A stretch of 64,000 nt of DNA from assembly GCF_058153355.1 (NCBI RefSeq), contig NZ_CM177019.1, one strand, 5' to 3'. Position numbers and translations under genes: made by a program. Under the pieces are notes generated by a model, which was not told the DNA's origin, did not search any database, and saw nothing but the letters and a program-made list of their open reading frames with translations. Shown in pieces: positions 518 to 50,314 of this stretch. How positions within the stretch are numbered: the first letter of the stretch is position 1; each line of letters opens with the position of its first letter.

Positions 518-961
518 ATGCGGCTTATTGATTATTTTCCAGAATCATCAATCTCAGTTATACATTCAGCAAAAGACTGGCAGGAAGTTATCGATTTTTC
601 GATGGCATCATTGCTGGATAAAAACTATATCAGTGAGAATTACATTCAGGCTATTAAAGATTCCACCATTAACAATGGCCCTTATTATATTCTCGCACCA
701 GGCGTGGCAATGCCTCATGCGCGACCGGAATGTGGGGCGCTTAAAACCGGGATGTCTTTGACGTTACTTAAACAAGGCGTTTATTTTCCGGGGAATGACG
801 AACCGATTAAATTACTTATCGGTCTTTCTGCTGCCGATGCCGATTCGCACATTGGCGCTATTCAGGCGTTAAGTGAATTGCTGTGCGAAGAAGAAATACT
901 TGAACAACTCTTAACTGCAACATCAGAAAAACAATTAGCGGACATTATCAGCCGCGAATAA
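518..961 (+). CDS. cmtB: PTS mannitol-like enzyme IIA component
   Basis: 147-aa ORF; sequence recognised as CmtB (IIA-Mtl family); immediately followed by the IICB gene. Confidence 0.9.
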   Translation: MRLIDYFPESSISVIHSAKDWQEVIDFSMASLLDKNYISENYIQAIKDSTINNGPYYILAPGVAMPHARPECGALKTGMSLTLLKQGVYFPGNDEPIKLLIGLSAADADSHIGAIQALSELLCEEEILEQLLTATSEKQLADIISRE

Positions 962-5162: not shown

Positions 5163-5872
5163 AAATCGAACTGACGGTGAATGGATTGAAGGTACAGGCG
5201 CAGTACCCGAACGAAGAGATTGAAAATGTGCATAAACCGTTGCTGCGTATGCTGGCAGCCTTACAGACGGTAAATCCGCAGCGGCGTACCGTGGTTTTTC
5301 TTTGCGCTCCGCCGGGGACGGGTAAATCTACCCTAACCACCTTCTGGGAATATCTCGCGCAACAAGACCCGGAACTACCCGCTATTCAGACGCTGCCGAT
5401 GGATGGTTTTCATCATTACAATAGCTGGCTGGATGCGCATCAATTGCGCCCCTTCAAAGGCGCACCAGAGACATTTGACGTTGCGAAACTGGCGGAAAAT
5501 CTGCGCCAGGTAATGGAAGGGGATTGTACGTGGCCGCAGTACGATCGACAAAAGCATGATCCTGTTGAAGATGCGTTGCACGTTACCGCACCACTCGTCA
5601 TCGTCGAAGGAAACTGGTTGTTGCTGGACGACGAGAAGTGGCGGGCGTTGGCATCGTTCTGCGATTTTTCTGTTTTTATTCATGCCCCCGTTCATATTCT
5701 GCGGGAACGCTTGATTAGTCGTAAAATTGCGGGGGGATTATCGCGGGATGAAGCCGAAGCTTTTTATGCCCGAACCGATGGTCCCAATGTCGAGCGTGTG
5801 CTGCTGAATAGTTGTCAGGCCAATCTGATATTAGAGATGACGGAAGAAGGCAGGTATCACTTCATAAGCTGA
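5159..5872 (+). CDS. yggC: P-loop nucleoside/pantothenate kinase-like protein
   Basis: 237-aa ORF with Walker A motif GTGKST; overlaps yggD stop by 4 bp. Confidence 0.8.
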   Translation: MKIELTVNGLKVQAQYPNEEIENVHKPLLRMLAALQTVNPQRRTVVFLCAPPGTGKSTLTTFWEYLAQQDPELPAIQTLPMDGFHHYNSWLDAHQLRPFKGAPETFDVAKLAENLRQVMEGDCTWPQYDRQKHDPVEDALHVTAPLVIVEGNWLLLDDEKWRALASFCDFSVFIHAPVHILRERLISRKIAGGLSRDEAEAFYARTDGPNVERVLLNSCQANLILEMTEEGRYHFIS

Positions 5873-6156: not shown

Positions 6157-7176
6157 ATGACCGTACGCGTAGCGATAAATGGCTTCGGTCGCATCGGGCG
6201 TAATGTGGTTCGTGCTTTGTATGAATCCGGACGCCGGGCGGAAATTACCGTGGTGGCAATCAACGAACTGGCGGATGCTGCCGGCATGGCGCATTTGTTG
6301 AAATATGACACCAGTCATGGCCGTTTTGCATGGGAAGTACGACAGGAACGCGATCAACTTTTTGTTGGTGATGACGCCATCCGCGTATTGCACGAACGTT
6401 CACTGCAATCGCTCCCATGGCGTGAACTTGGCGTCGATGTGGTTCTCGACTGCACCGGCGTATATGGCTCCCGCGAGCATGGCGAAGCGCATATTGCCGC
6501 CGGGGCTAAAAAAGTGCTCTTTTCACATCCTGGCAGTAACGATCTCGATGCGACCGTGGTTTACGGCGTCAATCAGGATCAACTTCGTGCGGAACACCGC
6601 ATCGTTTCTAACGCTTCCTGTACCACGAATTGCATAATTCCCGTCATCAAATTGTTAGATGATGCGTACGGTATTGAGTCCGGCACTGTGACCACAATTC
6701 ACTCCGCCATGCACGATCAACAGGTTATTGATGCATATCATCCTGACCTGCGTCGCACCCGGGCAGCCAGCCAGTCGATCATTCCAGTCGATACTAAACT
6801 GGCCGCCGGTATCACACGATTTTTTCCGCAATTTAACGATCGCTTTGAAGCAATTGCGGTGCGTGTACCAACCATAAATGTGACGGCAATCGATTTAAGC
6901 GTGACGGTGAAGAAACCTGTAAAAGCCAATGAAGTCAACCTGTTGCTGCAAAAAGCAGCACAAGGTGCATTTCATGGTATAGTTGACTATACGGAATTGC
7001 CGTTGGTCTCTGTAGATTTTAACCACGATCCGCACAGTGCCATTGTCGATGGCACCCAAACCCGGGTCAGTGGCGCACACCTGATCAAAACGTTGGTCTG
7101 GTGCGATAACGAATGGGGCTTTGCTAACCGAATGCTCGACACGACGTTAGCTATGGCTACTGTTGCTTTCAGGTAA
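6157..7176 (+). CDS. epd: D-erythrose-4-phosphate dehydrogenase
   Basis: Start set at ATG 6157 ([15 protein letters not shown]); 339 aa; GAPDH-family with SCTTNC active-site motif. Confidence 0.92.
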
Positions 7177-7225: not shown

Positions 7226-8389
7226 ATGTCTGTAATTAAGATGACCGATCTGGATCTTGCTGGGAAACGTGTATTTATCCGTGCGGATCTGAACGTACCA
7301 GTAAAAGACGGGAAAGTAACCAGCGATGCGCGTATCCGTGCTTCTCTGCCGACCATCGAACTGGCCCTGAAACAAGGCGCAAAAGTGATGGTAACTTCCC
7401 ACCTGGGTCGTCCTACCGAAGGCGAGTACAACGAAGAATTCTCTCTGCTGCCGGTTGTTAACTACCTGAAAGACAAACTGTCTAACCCGGTTCGTCTGGT
7501 TAAAGATTACCTCGACGGCGTTGACGTTGCTGAAGGTGAACTGGTTGTTCTGGAAAACGTTCGCTTCAACAAAGGCGAGAAGAAAGACGACGAAACCCTG
7601 TCCAAAAAATATGCTGCACTGTGTGACGTGTTCGTAATGGACGCATTCGGTACTGCTCACCGCGCGCAGGCTTCTACTCACGGTATCGGTAAATTCGCTG
7701 ATGTTGCGTGCGCAGGCCCGCTGCTGGCAGCTGAACTGGACGCGCTGGGTAAAGCACTGAAAGAACCTGCTCGCCCGATGGTGGCTATCGTTGGTGGTTC
7801 TAAAGTATCTACCAAACTGACCGTTCTGGATTCCCTGTCCAAAATCGCTGACCAGCTGATCGTGGGTGGTGGTATCGCTAACACCTTTATCGCGGCACAA
7901 GGCCACGATGTGGGTAAATCCCTGTACGAAGCTGACCTGGTTGACGAAGCAAAACGTCTGCTGACCACCTGCAACATTCCGGTTCCGTCTGACGTTCGCG
8001 TAGCAACTGAGTTCTCTGAAACTGCACCGGCTACCCTGAAATCTGTTAACGATGTGAAAGCTGACGAGCAGATCCTGGATATCGGCGATGCTTCTGCGCA
8101 GGAACTGGCTGAAATCCTGAAGAATGCGAAAACCATTCTGTGGAACGGCCCGGTTGGCGTGTTCGAATTCCCGAACTTCCGCAAAGGTACTGAAATCGTG
8201 GCTAACGCTATCGCAGACAGCGAAGCGTTCTCCATCGCTGGTGGCGGTGACACTCTGGCAGCAATCGACCTGTTCGGCATTGCTGACAAAATCTCCTACA
8301 TCTCCACTGGCGGCGGCGCATTCCTCGAATTCGTGGAAGGTAAAGTACTGCCTGCAGTAGCGATGCTCGAAGAGCGCGCTAAGAAGTAA
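7226..8389 (+). CDS. pgk: phosphoglycerate kinase
   Basis: Start at ATG 7226 ([16 protein letters not shown]); 387 aa; canonical Pgk sequence. Confidence 0.95.
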
Positions 8390-8452
8390 AAAATCACAGG
8401 GCAGGGAAACCTGCCCTTGTTGCAGCGCGCTTTTAGAGCACGCATTTTTTCA

Positions 8453-8577
8453 TACTCTAAATAATTCGAGTTGCAGGAAGGCGACAAGAGAGTGAATCCC
8501 CAGGAGCTTACATAAGTAAGTGACTGGGGTGAGCGAACGCAGACGCAGCACATGCAACTTGAAGTATGACGAGTATA
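8453..8577. repeat. ERIC (enterobacterial repetitive intergenic consensus) element, copy 1
   Basis: About 125 bp in the pgk-fbaA intergenic region containing GTGAATCCCCAGGAGCTTACATAAGTAAGTGACTGGGGTGAGCG; near-identical inverted copy at 21763-21887. Confidence 0.85.
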
Positions 8578-8603: not shown

Positions 8604-9683
8604 ATGTCTAAGATTTTTGATTTCGTAAAACCTGGCGTAATCACTGGTGATGACGTACAGAAAGTTTTCCAGGTAGCAAAAGAAAACAACTTCGCACTGC
8701 CAGCAGTAAACTGCGTCGGTACTGACTCCATCAACGCCGTACTGGAAACCGCTGCTAAAGTTAAAGCGCCGGTTATCGTTCAGTTCTCCAACGGTGGTGC
8801 TTCCTTTATCGCTGGTAAAGGCGTGAAATCTGACGTTCCGCAGGGTGCTGCTATCCTGGGTGCGATCTCTGGTGCGCATCACGTTCACCAGATGGCTGAA
8901 CACTATGGTGTTCCAGTTATCCTGCACACCGACCACTGCGCGAAAAAACTGCTGCCGTGGATCGACGGTCTGCTGGACGCGGGTGAAAAACACTTCGCAG
9001 CTACCGGTAAGCCGCTGTTCTCTTCTCACATGATCGACCTGTCTGAAGAATCTCTGCAAGAGAACATCGAAATCTGCTCTAAATACCTGGAGCGTATGTC
9101 CAAAATCGGCATGACTCTGGAAATCGAACTGGGTTGCACCGGTGGTGAAGAAGACGGCGTGGACAACAGCCACATGGACGCTTCTGCACTGTACACCCAG
9201 CCGGAAGACGTTGATTACGCATACACCGAGCTGAGCAAAATCAGCCCGCGCTTCACCATCGCAGCGTCCTTCGGTAACGTACACGGCGTATACAAGCCGG
9301 GTAACGTTGTTCTGACTCCGACCATCCTGCGTGACTCTCAGGAATATGTTTCTAAGAAACACAACCTGCCGCACAACAGCCTGAACTTCGTATTCCACGG
9401 CGGTTCCGGTTCTACTGCTCAGGAAATCAAAGACTCCGTAAGCTACGGCGTAGTGAAAATGAACATCGATACCGATACCCAATGGGCAACCTGGGAAGGT
9501 GTTCTGAACTACTACAAAGCGAACGAAGCTTATCTGCAGGGTCAGTTGGGCAACCCGAAAGGCGAAGATCAGCCGAACAAGAAATACTACGATCCGCGCG
9601 TATGGCTGCGTGCCGGTCAGACTTCGATGATCGCTCGTCTGGAAAAAGCATTCCAGGAACTGAACGCGATCGACGTTCTGTAA
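8604..9683 (+). CDS. fbaA: fructose-bisphosphate aldolase class II
   Basis: Start at ATG 8604 (MSKIFDFVKPGV); 359 aa; the longer ORF-track start at 8520 lies inside the ERIC repeat. Confidence 0.95.
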   Translation: MSKIFDFVKPGVITGDDVQKVFQVAKENNFALPAVNCVGTDSINAVLETAAKVKAPVIVQFSNGGASFIAGKGVKSDVPQGAAILGAISGAHHVHQMAEHYGVPVILHTDHCAKKLLPWIDGLLDAGEKHFAATGKPLFSSHMIDLSEESLQENIEICSKYLERMSKIGMTLEIELGCTGGEEDGVDNSHMDASALYTQPEDVDYAYTELSKISPRFTIAASFGNVHGVYKPGNVVLTPTILRDSQEYVSKKHNLPHNSLNFVFHGGSGSTAQEIKDSVSYGVVKMNIDTDTQWATWEGVLNYYKANEAYLQGQLGNPKGEDQPNKKYYDPRVWLRAGQTSMIARLEKAFQELNAIDVL

Positions 9684-9747: not shown

Positions 9748-10996
<1,249 letters not shown>

Positions 10997-11026
10997 CATG
11001 CCTGCAATCTGGGAAACCGGGGTAGA

Positions 11027-11060
<34 letters not shown>

Positions 11061-21516: not shown

Positions 21517-21747
21517 TTGCATTTCGCTCAGCGAGTTCGCGCCCTGGTTGTGTTGAATGGCGTGGCGTTATTGCCTCAATTTGCCTGTAAACAGGGGCTT
21601 GCCAACGGTGAACTGGTGCGCCTGTTCGCACCGTGGAGCGGCATACCCAGACCGTTGTATGCTTTATTTGCCGGGCGAAAGGGGATGCCCGCCATTGCGC
21701 GATATTTTATGGATGAGTTAACCACGCGGCTTGCCAACGGGGTCTGA
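21517..21747 (+). pseudogene. yqfE: LysR-family regulator C-terminal remnant
   Basis: 76-aa ORF resembling only the C-terminal effector-domain end of a LysR regulator; no N-terminal helix-turn-helix domain present. Confidence 0.55.
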
Positions 21748-21762
21748 ATCGCTTTTTTTGTA

Positions 21763-21887
21763 TATACTCGTCATACTTCAAGTTGCATGTGCTGCGTCTG
21801 CGTTCGCTCACCCCAGTCACTTACTTCTGTAAGCTCCTGGGGATTCACTCTCTTGTCGCCTCCCTGCAACTCGAATTATTTAGAGTA
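21763..21887. repeat. ERIC element, copy 2 (inverted relative to copy 1)
   Basis: Reverse complement matches 8453-8577 with about 3 mismatches. Confidence 0.85.
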
Positions 21888-21925
21888 TAATGCGAGTGAA
21901 ATTTCATACCACAGGCGAAACGATC

Positions 21926-22585
21926 ATGACGCAGGATGAATTGAAAAAAGCAGTAGGATGGGCGGCACTTCAGTATGTTCAGCCCGGCACCATTGTTGGT
22001 GTAGGTACAGGTTCCACCGCCGCACACTTTATTGACGCGCTCGGCACGATGAAAGGCCAGATTGAAGGGGCCGTTTCCAGTTCGGATGCGTCCACTGAAA
22101 AACTGAAAAGCCTCGGCATTCACGTTTTTGATCTCAACGAAGTCGACAGCCTTGGCATCTACGTCGACGGTGCAGATGAAATCAACGGCCACATGCAGAT
22201 GATCAAAGGCGGCGGCGCGGCGCTGACCCGTGAAAAAATCATTGCTTCGGTTGCGGAAAAATTTATCTGTATTGCAGACGCTTCTAAGCAGGTTGATATT
22301 CTGGGCAAATTCCCGCTGCCAGTAGAAGTTATCCCGATGGCACGTAGTGCAGTGGCGCGCCAGCTGGTGAAACTGGGCGGTCGTCCGGAATACCGCCAGG
22401 GCGTGGTGACCGATAACGGCAACGTGATCCTCGACGTCCACGGCATGGAAATCCTTGACCCAATAGCGATGGAAAACGCCATAAATGCGATTCCGGGCGT
22501 GGTGACTGTTGGCTTATTTGCTAACCGTGGCGCGGACGTTGCGCTGATTGGCACACCTGACGGTGTCAAAACCATTGTGAAATGA
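21926..22585 (+). CDS. rpiA: ribose-5-phosphate isomerase A
   Basis: Start at 21926 ([15 protein letters not shown]); 219 aa. Confidence 0.93.
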
Positions 22586-24229: not shown

Positions 24230-24375
24230 TAGGATGGCGAGGCAGCATAGGGCTACAACGGTAAAGCCCTCACCGAAGCGAGGGCTTGAAGGAGAAGGGT
24301 TATGATGCGACTCGTCATCATACTGATTGTACTGTTACTCATAAGTTTCCCAGCTTATTAACAGTCAGTCACAGG
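24230..24375 (-). ncRNA. sibC: SibC antisense sRNA (antitoxin to ibsC); ends approximate
   Basis: Inferred from the known Sib/Ibs arrangement in which the sRNA fully overlaps the toxin ORF on the opposite strand; boundaries not determinable from sequence alone. Confidence 0.45.
24302..24361 (+). CDS. ibsC: type I toxin IbsC (19-aa hydrophobic peptide)
   Basis: GAAGGAGAAGGG Shine-Dalgarno then ATGATGCGACTCGTCATCATACTGATTGTACTGTTACTCATAAGTTTCCCAGCTTATTAA = MMRLVIILIVLLLISFPAY; too short for the ORF track. Confidence 0.8.
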   Translation: MMRLVIILIVLLLISFPAY

Positions 24376-24461
24376 GGAGGAGCAATCCTCCCTTACCCTT
24401 ACTCACTAAATTAGGTCAAAGAATCAACGATGTCAATCAGGGCGATGCAGGTGTGTCGCCC

Positions 24462-25082: not shown

Positions 25083-25268
25083 AGGGAATCTCCGAGATGC
25101 CGCCGCAGGCTGTAACCCTTGAACCCTTGGTTCAAGGTGAATGTGTCGTCACAGTTTTAAGGCTTCTCGGACGGACCGAGCATGCTCACCAACCGCGGAG
25201 CGCCACATTCTTGTGGTATGAAATATCGGCTCAGGGGACTGGCCCGCTTGCGAACATCTCAGAGAAAT
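25083..25268 (-). ncRNA. ssrS: 6S RNA
   Basis: Reverse complement reads ATTTCTCTGAGATGTTCGCAAGCGGGCCAGTCCCCTGAGCCGATATTTCATACCACAAGAATGTGGCGCTCCGCGG...GGAGATTCCCT, the 6S RNA sequence. Confidence 0.93.
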
Positions 25269-35104: not shown

Positions 35105-35307
35105 AAAGGCGCTTCGGCGCCTTTGACACTGATGTCAAACTCAACATTGCCTGATACACCTCGTTTATCAGGCCTACATAGTCTGTGCAATGTATTGAAT
35201 TTGCACGATTTTGTAGGCTGGATAAGGCGTTCACGCCGCATCCGGCATAATAAAAGCACTTTGTCATCAATAATTTGAAAGGCGCTTCGGCGCCTTTATT
35301 TTTTTAG
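35105..35307. repeat. BIME/REP cluster flanked by two copies of a terminator hairpin
   Basis: AAAGGCGCTTCGGCGCCTTT at 35105-35124 and again at 35277-35296, the second followed by a T-run; REP-like palindromes between them. Confidence 0.7.
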
Positions 35308-38745: not shown

Positions 38746-38776
<31 letters not shown>

Positions 38777-38806
38777 TCTACCCCGGTTTCCCAGATTGCA
38801 GGCATG

Positions 38807-40190
<1,384 letters not shown>

Positions 40191-48888: not shown

Positions 48889-50314
48889 TAATGCCAGTCA
48901 GTTAAGCAACTGACTGGCTCTTTTTCGGGGCTGTGGGGTATTTCCAGGGCCTCTCCTTTACCACTCTCGGGAAGGCCCTTTCCCTTCTTGTCGGTAATTT
49001 CACAAGTTGTCCCATACTTGCAAGATCGCGCATCAGCTCCGGTATACGTCCCGGTGAAGCGCCCTGCAATGTCATCAGCATTCTCATCACCATTCCGCAT
49101 GATTCTGAGAAACTCAGTTGATTCGGCCAGTAACCTTTCAGATGTTCCGCCATTTTAATCATCTGATATCTCACCAGATTATAAGCCAGTAAGACACCCC
49201 ACAGCTCTTGCTCCACAAGCTCCGGCTTTTTACTTCTCAGCGTCAGCCTGCTCAGTTGCATCGTCTGTTTTATCTCCCTGTATCCCAGTTCGATTTCCCA
49301 GCGATGACTGTACAGATCCGCCATTTCTCCTCCGGGGAAGCGCATGGCGTCCGTCATCGACGTCAGCAGATGGCAGACTTTTCCTTTGCGCGTCACGGTC
49401 AGCAGGCGGGCTGTCACTTCATTTCCCAGTCCCGGCCACTTTTTTCGTGCCTGCGGGCTGGTTTTCAGCTTCACCAGATGATCGCCTTTACCCAGTTTTC
49501 TGATCTCTTCATATTGCGCTCCCTTTCTGAGAGGTATCATCCAGTGGCGGTGTTCTCCCGCCAGGCTCCAGGCATTTAACAGTCCCAGTGAGTAATAACC
49601 TTTATCCATTAACGTCAGAGTGTTATCGCCGGTTTGTTCTATAAGTTGCTCAGCAAGCTCATTTTCGCTGTTCTTCATCGTGCCGAAGGCTGCAGCCGTC
49701 AGCAGATGGCTGGTCAGTTCCATCTGGCAGACCATTTTGACCTGCGGGTAGAGCGCCGGGTTCCCGGCATGTGTCTGGCGGGGGAAGGCTGCATCGTTCT
49801 CTGGTGTATCCGGTGTGCGCCAGAACACACCATCGATGGCCAGCAGGGTCAGGCCGCACCAGTGCGGATGCGGCGTGGCGTTATGCCAGAGCTGCGCTGT
49901 TTTCGTGAACACGCGGCGGACAGCCTCACTTCCCAGGCGCTGGCGGGCCTGAATAACGGCACTGGGGGCAACGAAGGGGCGATTGCCCGGCAGCATGATG
50001 TCCAGGCGATTCACAATCTGGTGAAGAGGTTCTTTACGCTCAAGCGCCATGCCAACAATACACCAGACCATCATTTCGAGGGGAAGACGGCGCTTGCGTA
50101 GCGTTACAGTACCTGATTCGGCAAGGCAACGAGAGATGAGTTCGGGGTCGAGGTAATCCCCCAGAGAAGTCAGTGGGTTACGCAGAGAATCGTAACGGGA
50201 TACCAGATCAAGAGCCTGTCCAATGTGCATAAAAAAATCCGGAAACAAGTGAGCGTTTCCGGATTCTTACACAGCCACTGGATCGGTCAACTGATCCTTA
50301 ACTGATCGGCATTA
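48889..50314 (-). mobile_element. IS4 insertion sequence
   Basis: 1426 bp; 18-bp imperfect terminal inverted repeats TAATGCCAGTCAGTTAAG (48889-48906) and CTTAACTGATCGGCATTA (50297-50314); flanked by 12-bp direct repeat CGGCAAATGTCG at 48877-48888 and 50315-50326. Confidence 0.92.
48902..50230 (-). CDS. insG: IS4 transposase
   Basis: Start at ATG 50230 ([14 protein letters not shown]); 442 aa; the ORF-track start at 50248 is not ATG. Confidence 0.9.

Follow-up and report, generated by a model that had tools for sequence, protein, structure and literature searches.

According to our analysis, the two inverted, nearly identical sequences in the window (the whole 64,000-nucleotide stretch of DNA considered here) are ERIC elements, of which copy A is very probably an old insertion, now nearly fixed in the pgk-fbaA spacer of Escherichia coli, and copy B a segregating allele inserted at the putative -10 box of rpiA. 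Both are full-length ERIC (IRU/RU-1) elements in which every testable defining feature of the family was found, and both are ordinary members of it, with no departure from known ERIC biology. The family, reportedly first described in 1990-91, consists of non-autonomous enterobacterial miniature inverted-repeat elements of about 127 bp that sit at TA dinucleotides. Published work describes them as MITEs with terminal inverted repeats, a TA duplication and strain-specific copies (PMC2229807, PMC2759123, PMC3184786, PMC10969869); no cognate transposase is known (PMC2759123), and a 2006 report, as cited in PMC10969869, lists 14 extra strain-specific loci in non-K-12 strains. TA duplication, hairpins, strain-to-strain presence and absence, length variants, internal insertions and palindrome-associated deletions are thus features already established for ERIC.

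A repeat finder run over the 64 kb returned one inverted pair, with arms of 126 nt each (8452-8577 and 21763-21888) that are 98% complementary and separated by 13,185 nt, just as the original prediction had it: two ERIC repeats in inverted orientation 13 kb apart. Its placement of the copies between pgk and fbaA and between yqfE and rpiA agrees with the boundaries of pgk and fbaA and of the yqfE remnant and rpiA, and both positions are extragenic. The near-identity proposed from reading by eye was, if anything, slightly underestimated, since alignment of the two copies gave 124/126 identities, and the "about three" differences have to be corrected to exactly two, at element position 27 (A versus G) and position 62 (T versus G); when the allele common in other strains replaces the window's own copy B, the agreement becomes 125/126. 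Two ERIC-PCR primer 22-mers used as probes, which we take to be ERIC1R and ERIC2, both occur with 0-1 mismatch in copy A as well as in copy B, against 0.00 matches expected by chance (100 shuffles), and the bases they target are also present in the published E. coli consensus.

Both copies align without gaps, end to end over 127 nt, with published ERIC sequences, namely the E. coli consensus (as its reverse complement) and Salmonella SeRU-1, taken from Delihas 2007 (PMC2759123). Copy A matches the consensus at 112/127 positions and copy B at 111/127 (about 88%), each of them matches SeRU-1 at 117/127 (about 92%), and BLAST E values against these sequences range from 3e-44 to 1e-49, with 3e-44 for copy A; the full-length alignment together with the BLAST matches excludes a spurious consensus match. 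The terminal inverted repeats read TATACTC...GAGTATA in both, with TA/TATA flanks, and an element of 127 nt cannot carry a transposase of its own. Dispersal over at least two copies is seen in the pair itself and in E. coli genomes generally, where megablast with ERIC-containing queries detected a median of 5-6 places per genome, while BLAST with the two published consensus sequences, up to E=10, found no third copy in the window. Neither element is covered by any Rfam family at the gathering threshold. An identity as REP/BIME was considered and rejected, the unit being 127 nt long, with no Rfam REP-type match at either site and an ERIC match instead. At about 13 positions copies A and B depart together from the E. 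coli consensus and, being 98% alike and only 88% like that consensus, they belong to one ERIC sub-type; that copy A is the closest paralogue of copy B is suggested by the single circumstance that both stand about 12% away from the consensus.

Table 1. Coordinates of the two ERIC copies and of associated features in the window and in compared loci.
Feature	Sequence	Coordinates	Strand	Description
GC-rich hairpin GGGCAGG-GAAA-CCTGCCC	window	8398..8417	+	just 3' of the pgk stop, upstream of copy A
ERIC copy A	window	8452..8577	+	Wilson & Sharp consensus orientation relative to pgk->fbaA transcription; canonical 127-nt copy 8451-8577, C replacing T at the first base
fbaA coding sequence	window	8604..9683	+	translation MSKIFDFVKPGVITGDD..., annotation of matching records
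yqfE remnant stop codon	window	21746..21748	+	14 nt before copy B; annotation in 2020CK-00188 and K-12
ERIC copy B	window	21763..21889	-	127 nt, TATACTCG...TTTAGAGTATA; reverse relative to copy A and rpiA
Left TATA direct repeat	window	21763..21766	+	flanks/terminates copy B; target duplication of TA or TATA
Putative rpiA -10 hexamer TATAAT	window	21886..21891	+	begins with the right-hand TATA of copy B
rpiA coding sequence	window	21926..22585	+	219 codons plus stop; translation, annotation in matching E. coli records
ERIC remnant, 52 nt	L013, L014 (Escherichia sp. E1V33, E. albertii)	6586-6640, 5731-5767		pgk-fbaA site
Spacer without copy A	L095, L096, L097 (E. coli MB53, PS10-3, AH04)			pgk-fbaA site
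Internal modules of the longest copy B form	L004 (E2348/69)	414-492, 534-604		79 nt and 71 nt
Internal module of the intermediate copy B form	L005 (06-00048)	456-526		71 nt
TATAATGC upstream of rpiA	Escherichia, Salmonella, Citrobacter, Klebsiella, Raoultella, Kosakonia, Enterobacter, Kluyvera and others			invariant block

Copy B lies between the stop codon of a yqfE-type LysR remnant and the rpiA ATG, and its left flank is identical at 243/243 positions to that of strain 2020CK-00188. The empty site, as in K-12 and O26, reads GTA/TATAATGCG within the surrounding sequence GTATATAATG, and the filled site of the window reads GTA-TATACTCG...TTTAGAG-TATAATGCG, from which copy B is a net insert of 123 bp with TATA on both sides. 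The right-hand TATA opens a TATAAT that stands 34 nt before the rpiA ATG, and TATAATGC upstream of rpiA is invariant in 15 enterobacterial loci from at least nine named genera, most of the genera other than Escherichia having in addition a GGGACA about 18 nt farther upstream. From this conservation it would be logical to suggest that TATAAT is the -10 box of rpiA. As copy B ends inside this putative hexamer, it would represent DNA upstream of the rpiA start site and is probably outside the rpiA mRNA; only read-through from the yqfE remnant would bring it into RNA.

The insertion displaces the former upstream sequence to -136 and brings CTGCAA, at the end of copy B, to the -35 position with a 17-bp spacing. 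CTGCAA has 3 of 6 matches to the -35 consensus, no -35 box is recognisable in K-12 rpiA, and a consensus promoter scan gave no site above threshold in either the filled or the empty region; with 3 of 6 bases and no scan match, the case for the ERIC end standing in for a -35 box is weak. We propose that copy B was inserted, with a duplication of TATA (or TA), directly upstream of the rpiA -10 box, moving the former upstream promoter DNA 123 bp away and leaving TATAAT intact, and that rpiA in filled strains would then be driven by the -10 box and by whatever the ERIC end supplies (CTGCAA, 17 bp upstream). Literature searches for ERIC together with rpiA, or together with pgk/fbaA, gave nothing relevant.

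The neighbouring yqfE block has a variable structure of its own. A complete LysR gene of 897 nt is present in some E. coli, among them GmM066 (L090), and in Escherichia sp. MOD1-EC7003 (L011), and GmM066 carries azoreductase and BhsA-like genes ahead of this intact yqfE; K-12 and the window (21520-21748) have only its 3' remnant. The right boundary of the block coincides with the putative rpiA -10 box and with the copy B site. The whole block is missing from E. albertii and the other genera, and so is the ERIC; there, similarity to E. coli starts exactly at TATAAT.

Copy A occupies the other spacer, which is 214 nt long from the pgk stop (8387-8389) to the fbaA ATG, and ends 26 nt before that ATG. 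5'RACE detected no transcription start in this spacer, and the authors concluded that promoters farther upstream in the operon drive fbaA (Olvera et al. 2009, PMC2759082); we infer from that study that copy A is co-transcribed with pgk-fbaA and, as no start site falls within the spacer, that it precedes fbaA in the RNA in its full length, between the two cistrons. A sigma-70 scan of the pgk-fbaA spacer found nothing promoter-like above threshold, and the only terminator-like match in the scans was the pgk 3' hairpin, on the minus strand, which is also kept in ERIC-less spacers of other genera. Folded as RNA, copy A gives -48.8 kcal/mol (z -7.9) in a long imperfect hairpin of 33 pairs, and copy B, taken in the sense of rpiA and hence as the opposite strand of the element, gives -38.2 kcal/mol (z -5.4). 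A structure alignment of nine sequences (copies A and B, two published sequences and five pgk-fbaA spacer elements from Raoultella, Kosakonia and a MAG) has a consensus hairpin of 38 pairs, 12 of them kept by double (compensatory) changes. The internal palindromy that had been proposed for each copy is borne out by these folds; stem-loops in mRNA, claimed for both, stand as a hairpin potential of both copies but probably not as an mRNA feature of copy B, which most likely lies upstream of the rpiA start site. Likewise, the claim that the fbaA 5' leader contains the whole element is correct in that the element is upstream of fbaA in the RNA and incorrect in that this RNA is a polycistronic pgk-fbaA message, with the element between cistrons, and not a leader made from a promoter of fbaA itself.

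In Yersinia the reported effect of ERIC on mRNA is linked to RNase E (PMC2229807, PMC2759123, PMC3184786, PMC10969869), and a co-transcribed element can alter segmental mRNA stability in an orientation-dependent manner, likewise linked to RNase E (PMC2229807, PMC10969869, PMC3184786). Copy A should fold in the RNA into a hairpin that has the pgk 3' hairpin on one side and the ribosome-binding site of fbaA on the other. By analogy with Yersinia, if it acts at all, it would most likely be a passive RNA structure that modulates segmental decay or processing of the message. Both elements are absent from some healthy natural strains, which suggests that any effect of either one is modest.

With a 501-nt query centred on copy A and coverage of at least 80%, the element was found in 5414/5426 complete E. 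coli genomes. At least eight complete genomes (MB53, PS10-3, AH04 and others) are without it. These genomes match K-12 at 99.7-99.9% in the epd-pgk flank, with 3-6 differences in 2140 nt. Their junction, TTTTC-TA-CAGCCCG, is exactly the sequence of E. whittamii and of locus L010. The insertion junction of copy A is blurred, filled TTTTTCA...TA AGGCCCG standing against the empty TTTTC TA CAGCCCG. Simple precise excision is not supported as the origin of the ERIC-less E. coli alleles, the junction not being K-12 minus the element; an E. whittamii-type junction within K-12-like flanks argues instead that the ERIC-less spacer is an old allele moved by recombination. As a group, these genomes point to a trans-species ERIC-less allele and to short-tract recombination.

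For comparison with other species we used 80 loci, anchored on YggE in order that both spacers be included. An ERIC-less spacer of 87-98 nt is found in Klebsiella, Citrobacter, Kluyvera, Enterobacter and others, as well as in E. whittamii and in the species representative labelled E. coli SCPM-O-B-8794. In E. albertii and Escherichia sp. E1V33 the pgk-fbaA site holds a 52-nt ERIC remnant, from which the central 74 nt are gone between two GCAG direct repeats with identical end points in both species; the E. albertii remnant differs from E. coli copy A at 5/52 positions. Long spacers of 141-241 nt occur in Raoultella, Kosakonia, Intestinirhabdus, Enterobacter sp. Bisph1 and a MAG, and those of Raoultella and Kosakonia (L064, L066, L068, L071, L077, L087) contain BLAST ERIC-like matches of 70-93% to copy A, most of them in the orientation of copy A. 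BLAST gave no ERIC match in the long spacers of the MAG (L021, 201 nt), Intestinirhabdus (L053, 241 nt) and Enterobacter sp. Bisph1 (L079, 141 nt), of which those of the MAG and of Bisph1 look ERIC-like by eye and that of the MAG is alignable with the other elements in the structure alignment. The Raoultella and Kosakonia elements may go back to a single ancient insertion that the loci inherited, or to one TA site that was hit more than once.

Copy B has the opposite frequency. The filled state was counted in 51/5426 complete E. coli genomes with a 461-nt query (coverage at least 80%) and in 66/5426 with a 271-nt query that also catches variant flanks and longer forms; the site is empty in about 99% of complete genomes, K-12 and O26 included, and also in E. 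albertii. The complete-genome collection holds no exact match to the copy B region of the window, the best being 99.3% over 21690-21960, and the mismatches are a private C in the window's copy B and a promoter-proximal A common to the E686 group. Escherichia sp. MOD1-EC7003, a separate species representative, has an element at the same base after the yqfE stop, in the same orientation and with the B-specific loop variant, its contig ending inside the element. Three length forms exist at the rpiA site: 127 nt, the same with an additional 71 nt (06-00048), and the same with an additional 79 and 71 nt (E2348/69), these internal modules being built from three to four small hairpins. ERICs of Citrobacter amalonaticus (L023, L027) contain the 71-nt module too, at 94-96% identity, which makes it a feature of the family, and the 79-nt module is found again in Intestinirhabdus (L053) at 77-79%.

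Eight filled copy B alleles compared over 330 nt to the right of the element gave six different sequences, of which two are sequences of empty alleles: the filled CFSAN018748 equals the empty AF57, and the filled 06-00048 equals the empty K-12 and O26. GF4-3, also filled, differs from all others at 12-17 sites, and in 06-00048 the left flank resembles that of the window and the right flank that of K-12. The three length forms, the several flank haplotypes and the occurrence in another Escherichia species favour an old insertion that was probably lost or replaced later in most lineages; both ERIC sites are polymorphic for presence and absence, in a pattern that fits old recombined or lost alleles at least as well as new insertions. 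On the simplest reading, the insertion took place in an early Escherichia lineage carrying the yqfE block, and the later loss would have gone through deletion between the TATA repeats or through replacement by recombination.

The window itself is a piece of E. coli chromosome in which the gene order is that of K-12 (tkt ... epd-pgk-fbaA-mscS-argO-yggE ... argP-yqfE-rpiA-serA ...), about 96% identical to K-12 (L093) throughout and 98-99.9% identical to E. coli E686 (L094), and it comes from a divergent E. coli lineage that has no exact representative among the 5426 complete genomes. Local introgression around copy B was considered and ruled out, the whole window being about 96% identical to K-12 and 98-99.9% to E686. 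An insertion sequence is present in two 100%-identical inverted copies (9763-11057 and 38746-40040), seen as 1278-nt gaps against K-12 and E686 (9775-11052 and 38751-40028), and its 326-aa ORF at 9967-10947 matches NF033542, "IS110 family RNA-guided transposase", with 253 bits; it presumably resembles IS621. Both copies lie in or beside REP sequences and bracket a 27.7-kb segment that includes copy B. A further insertion of 1426 nt against K-12 and E686 (48889-50314) has a 448-aa minus-strand ORF for an IS4 family transposase (NF033592, 304 bits). Gathering-level Rfam matches at 24286-24436, 25085-25268, 35170-35212 and 40030-40107 are Sib antitoxin RNA, 6S RNA, ES036 and the REP-derived naRNA4, respectively, all of them expected in this E. 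coli region.

The similarity between the two copies deserves separate consideration. They differ at 1-2 of 126 positions, where by a rough estimate about 8 differences would be expected had a neutral duplication preceded the radiation of E. coli; with fewer differences than this neutral expectation, a later copying event with horizontal spread, gene conversion or constraint is possible. One may tentatively suggest, in a reading that is compatible with an old insertion and that we hold to be possible but not probable, that gene conversion or selection on the sequence has kept the copies alike and that their near-identity is no sign of recency. The E. albertii remnant, with 5/52 differences, speaks against strong constraint on the element between species, and still only one or two positions separate A from B; the mixed flanks of 06-00048 imply exchange at or beside the element. 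However, the differences between A and B are too few to demonstrate a conversion tract, 126 bp is short for efficient RecA-dependent exchange, and the crossover outcome, an inversion, was seen in 0/5426 genomes.

The same resemblance, 124/126 (or 125/126 with the common allele) between copies that are each only about 88% like the family consensus, could be read as a recent 13-kb hop of copy A to the rpiA site, with ERIC still mobile and a TA-duplicating transposase acting in trans, and the clean TATA duplication in the filled/empty comparison and the rarity of copy B would agree with it. We consider this unlikely, because another Escherichia species carries the insertion at this very base and likewise oriented, and the filled alleles have divergent flank haplotypes, one of them 13-17 differences per 330 nt away, and three length forms, so that independent hops would have to strike one TA repeatedly. 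No transposase candidate with matching ends was identified, and the insertion-sequence types of the window are IS110-family and IS4-family, neither of which is known to duplicate TA.

A further suggestion, improbable in our view, is that both elements are selected regulatory parts, copy A setting the Pgk:FbaA ratio by RNase E processing or 5' protection and copy B serving as an rpiA promoter module. Near-fixation of copy A in E. coli, ERIC-type elements in the same spacer and orientation in Raoultella, Kosakonia and others, and a hairpin kept through compensatory changes speak in its favour, as do the orientation-dependent, RNase E-linked effects reported for Yersinia (PMC2229807). Against it stand the 87-98-nt ERIC-less spacer of most genera and of two other Escherichia species, the absence of copy A from at least eight otherwise K-12-like E. 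coli genomes, the mere 52-nt remnant retained by E. albertii, and the absence of copy B from about 99% of genomes; besides, a palindromic transposon end would be expected to show compensatory changes just as well.

A more far-reaching version, to which we give little credence, takes copy B as a promoter-rewiring allele in which the ERIC replaces everything upstream of the -10 box of rpiA, a nearly essential gene, both states being kept across Escherichia by selection or by recurrent precise excision at the TATA repeats; copy A may perhaps behave likewise in pgk-fbaA, at the opposite frequency. If this were true, ERIC presence and absence would constitute a tractable, long-lived cis-regulatory polymorphism in central metabolism. 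Finally, a part of the pair in recombination that inverts the 13 kb from fbaA to yqfE, imaginable for two 126-nt inverted repeats of 98% identity, is extremely improbable and at the population level effectively refuted, the predicted pgk-ERIC-yqfE(rc) junction occurring in 0/5426 genomes (coverage at least 80%) and the window being collinear with K-12 across the segment.

With copy B on the probable rpiA core promoter, promoter models based on K-12 annotation would not transfer to the roughly 1% of strains that carry it, and polymorphic copies alter ERIC-PCR fingerprints. Natural filled/empty pairs in near-identical backgrounds (MB53 versus K-12 for pgk-fbaA; CFSAN018748 versus AF57 and 06-00048 versus K-12 for rpiA) are ready material for asking whether ERICs act.

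Among known systems, the REP/BIME sequences are, like the two copies, extragenic palindromic repeats of E. coli, with examples in the window at 40023-40182. A REP unit is a GC-rich palindrome of 35-40 nt, often clustered, unlike our 127-nt ERIC-matching elements, and the only REP-derived Rfam hit is at 40030-40107. The E. coli ERIC consensus (Wilson & Sharp 2006, in PMC2759123) has the same length of 127 nt, the same central inverted repeat, TATAC...GTATA ends, TA at the insertion point, extragenic location and long hairpin; the outer arms of our copies, however, are nearer to the Salmonella sequence, and the first 34 and last 27 nt of SeRU-1 are identical to copy B, the two differing at about 10 central positions, in species and in locus. 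The Yersinia ERICs (De Gregorio et al. 2005, as reviewed in PMC2229807 and PMC10969869) are, like copy A, intercistronic, co-transcribed and hairpin-forming, but it was in Yersinia that an RNase E site was reported to destabilise the upstream cistron, depending on orientation, an effect that would apply to pgk-fbaA by analogy, and copy B is probably in no mRNA. The Correia/NEMIS elements of Neisseria, an unrelated sequence family, are also MITEs with a TA duplication, often lie beside promoters, and have ends that can supply -10 and -35 boxes (PMC3184786). Copy B resembles them in abutting a putative -10 box; in contrast to a box supplied by the element, TATAAT pre-exists in the empty alleles and in all genera checked, so that copy B would preserve, not create, the -10 box of rpiA.
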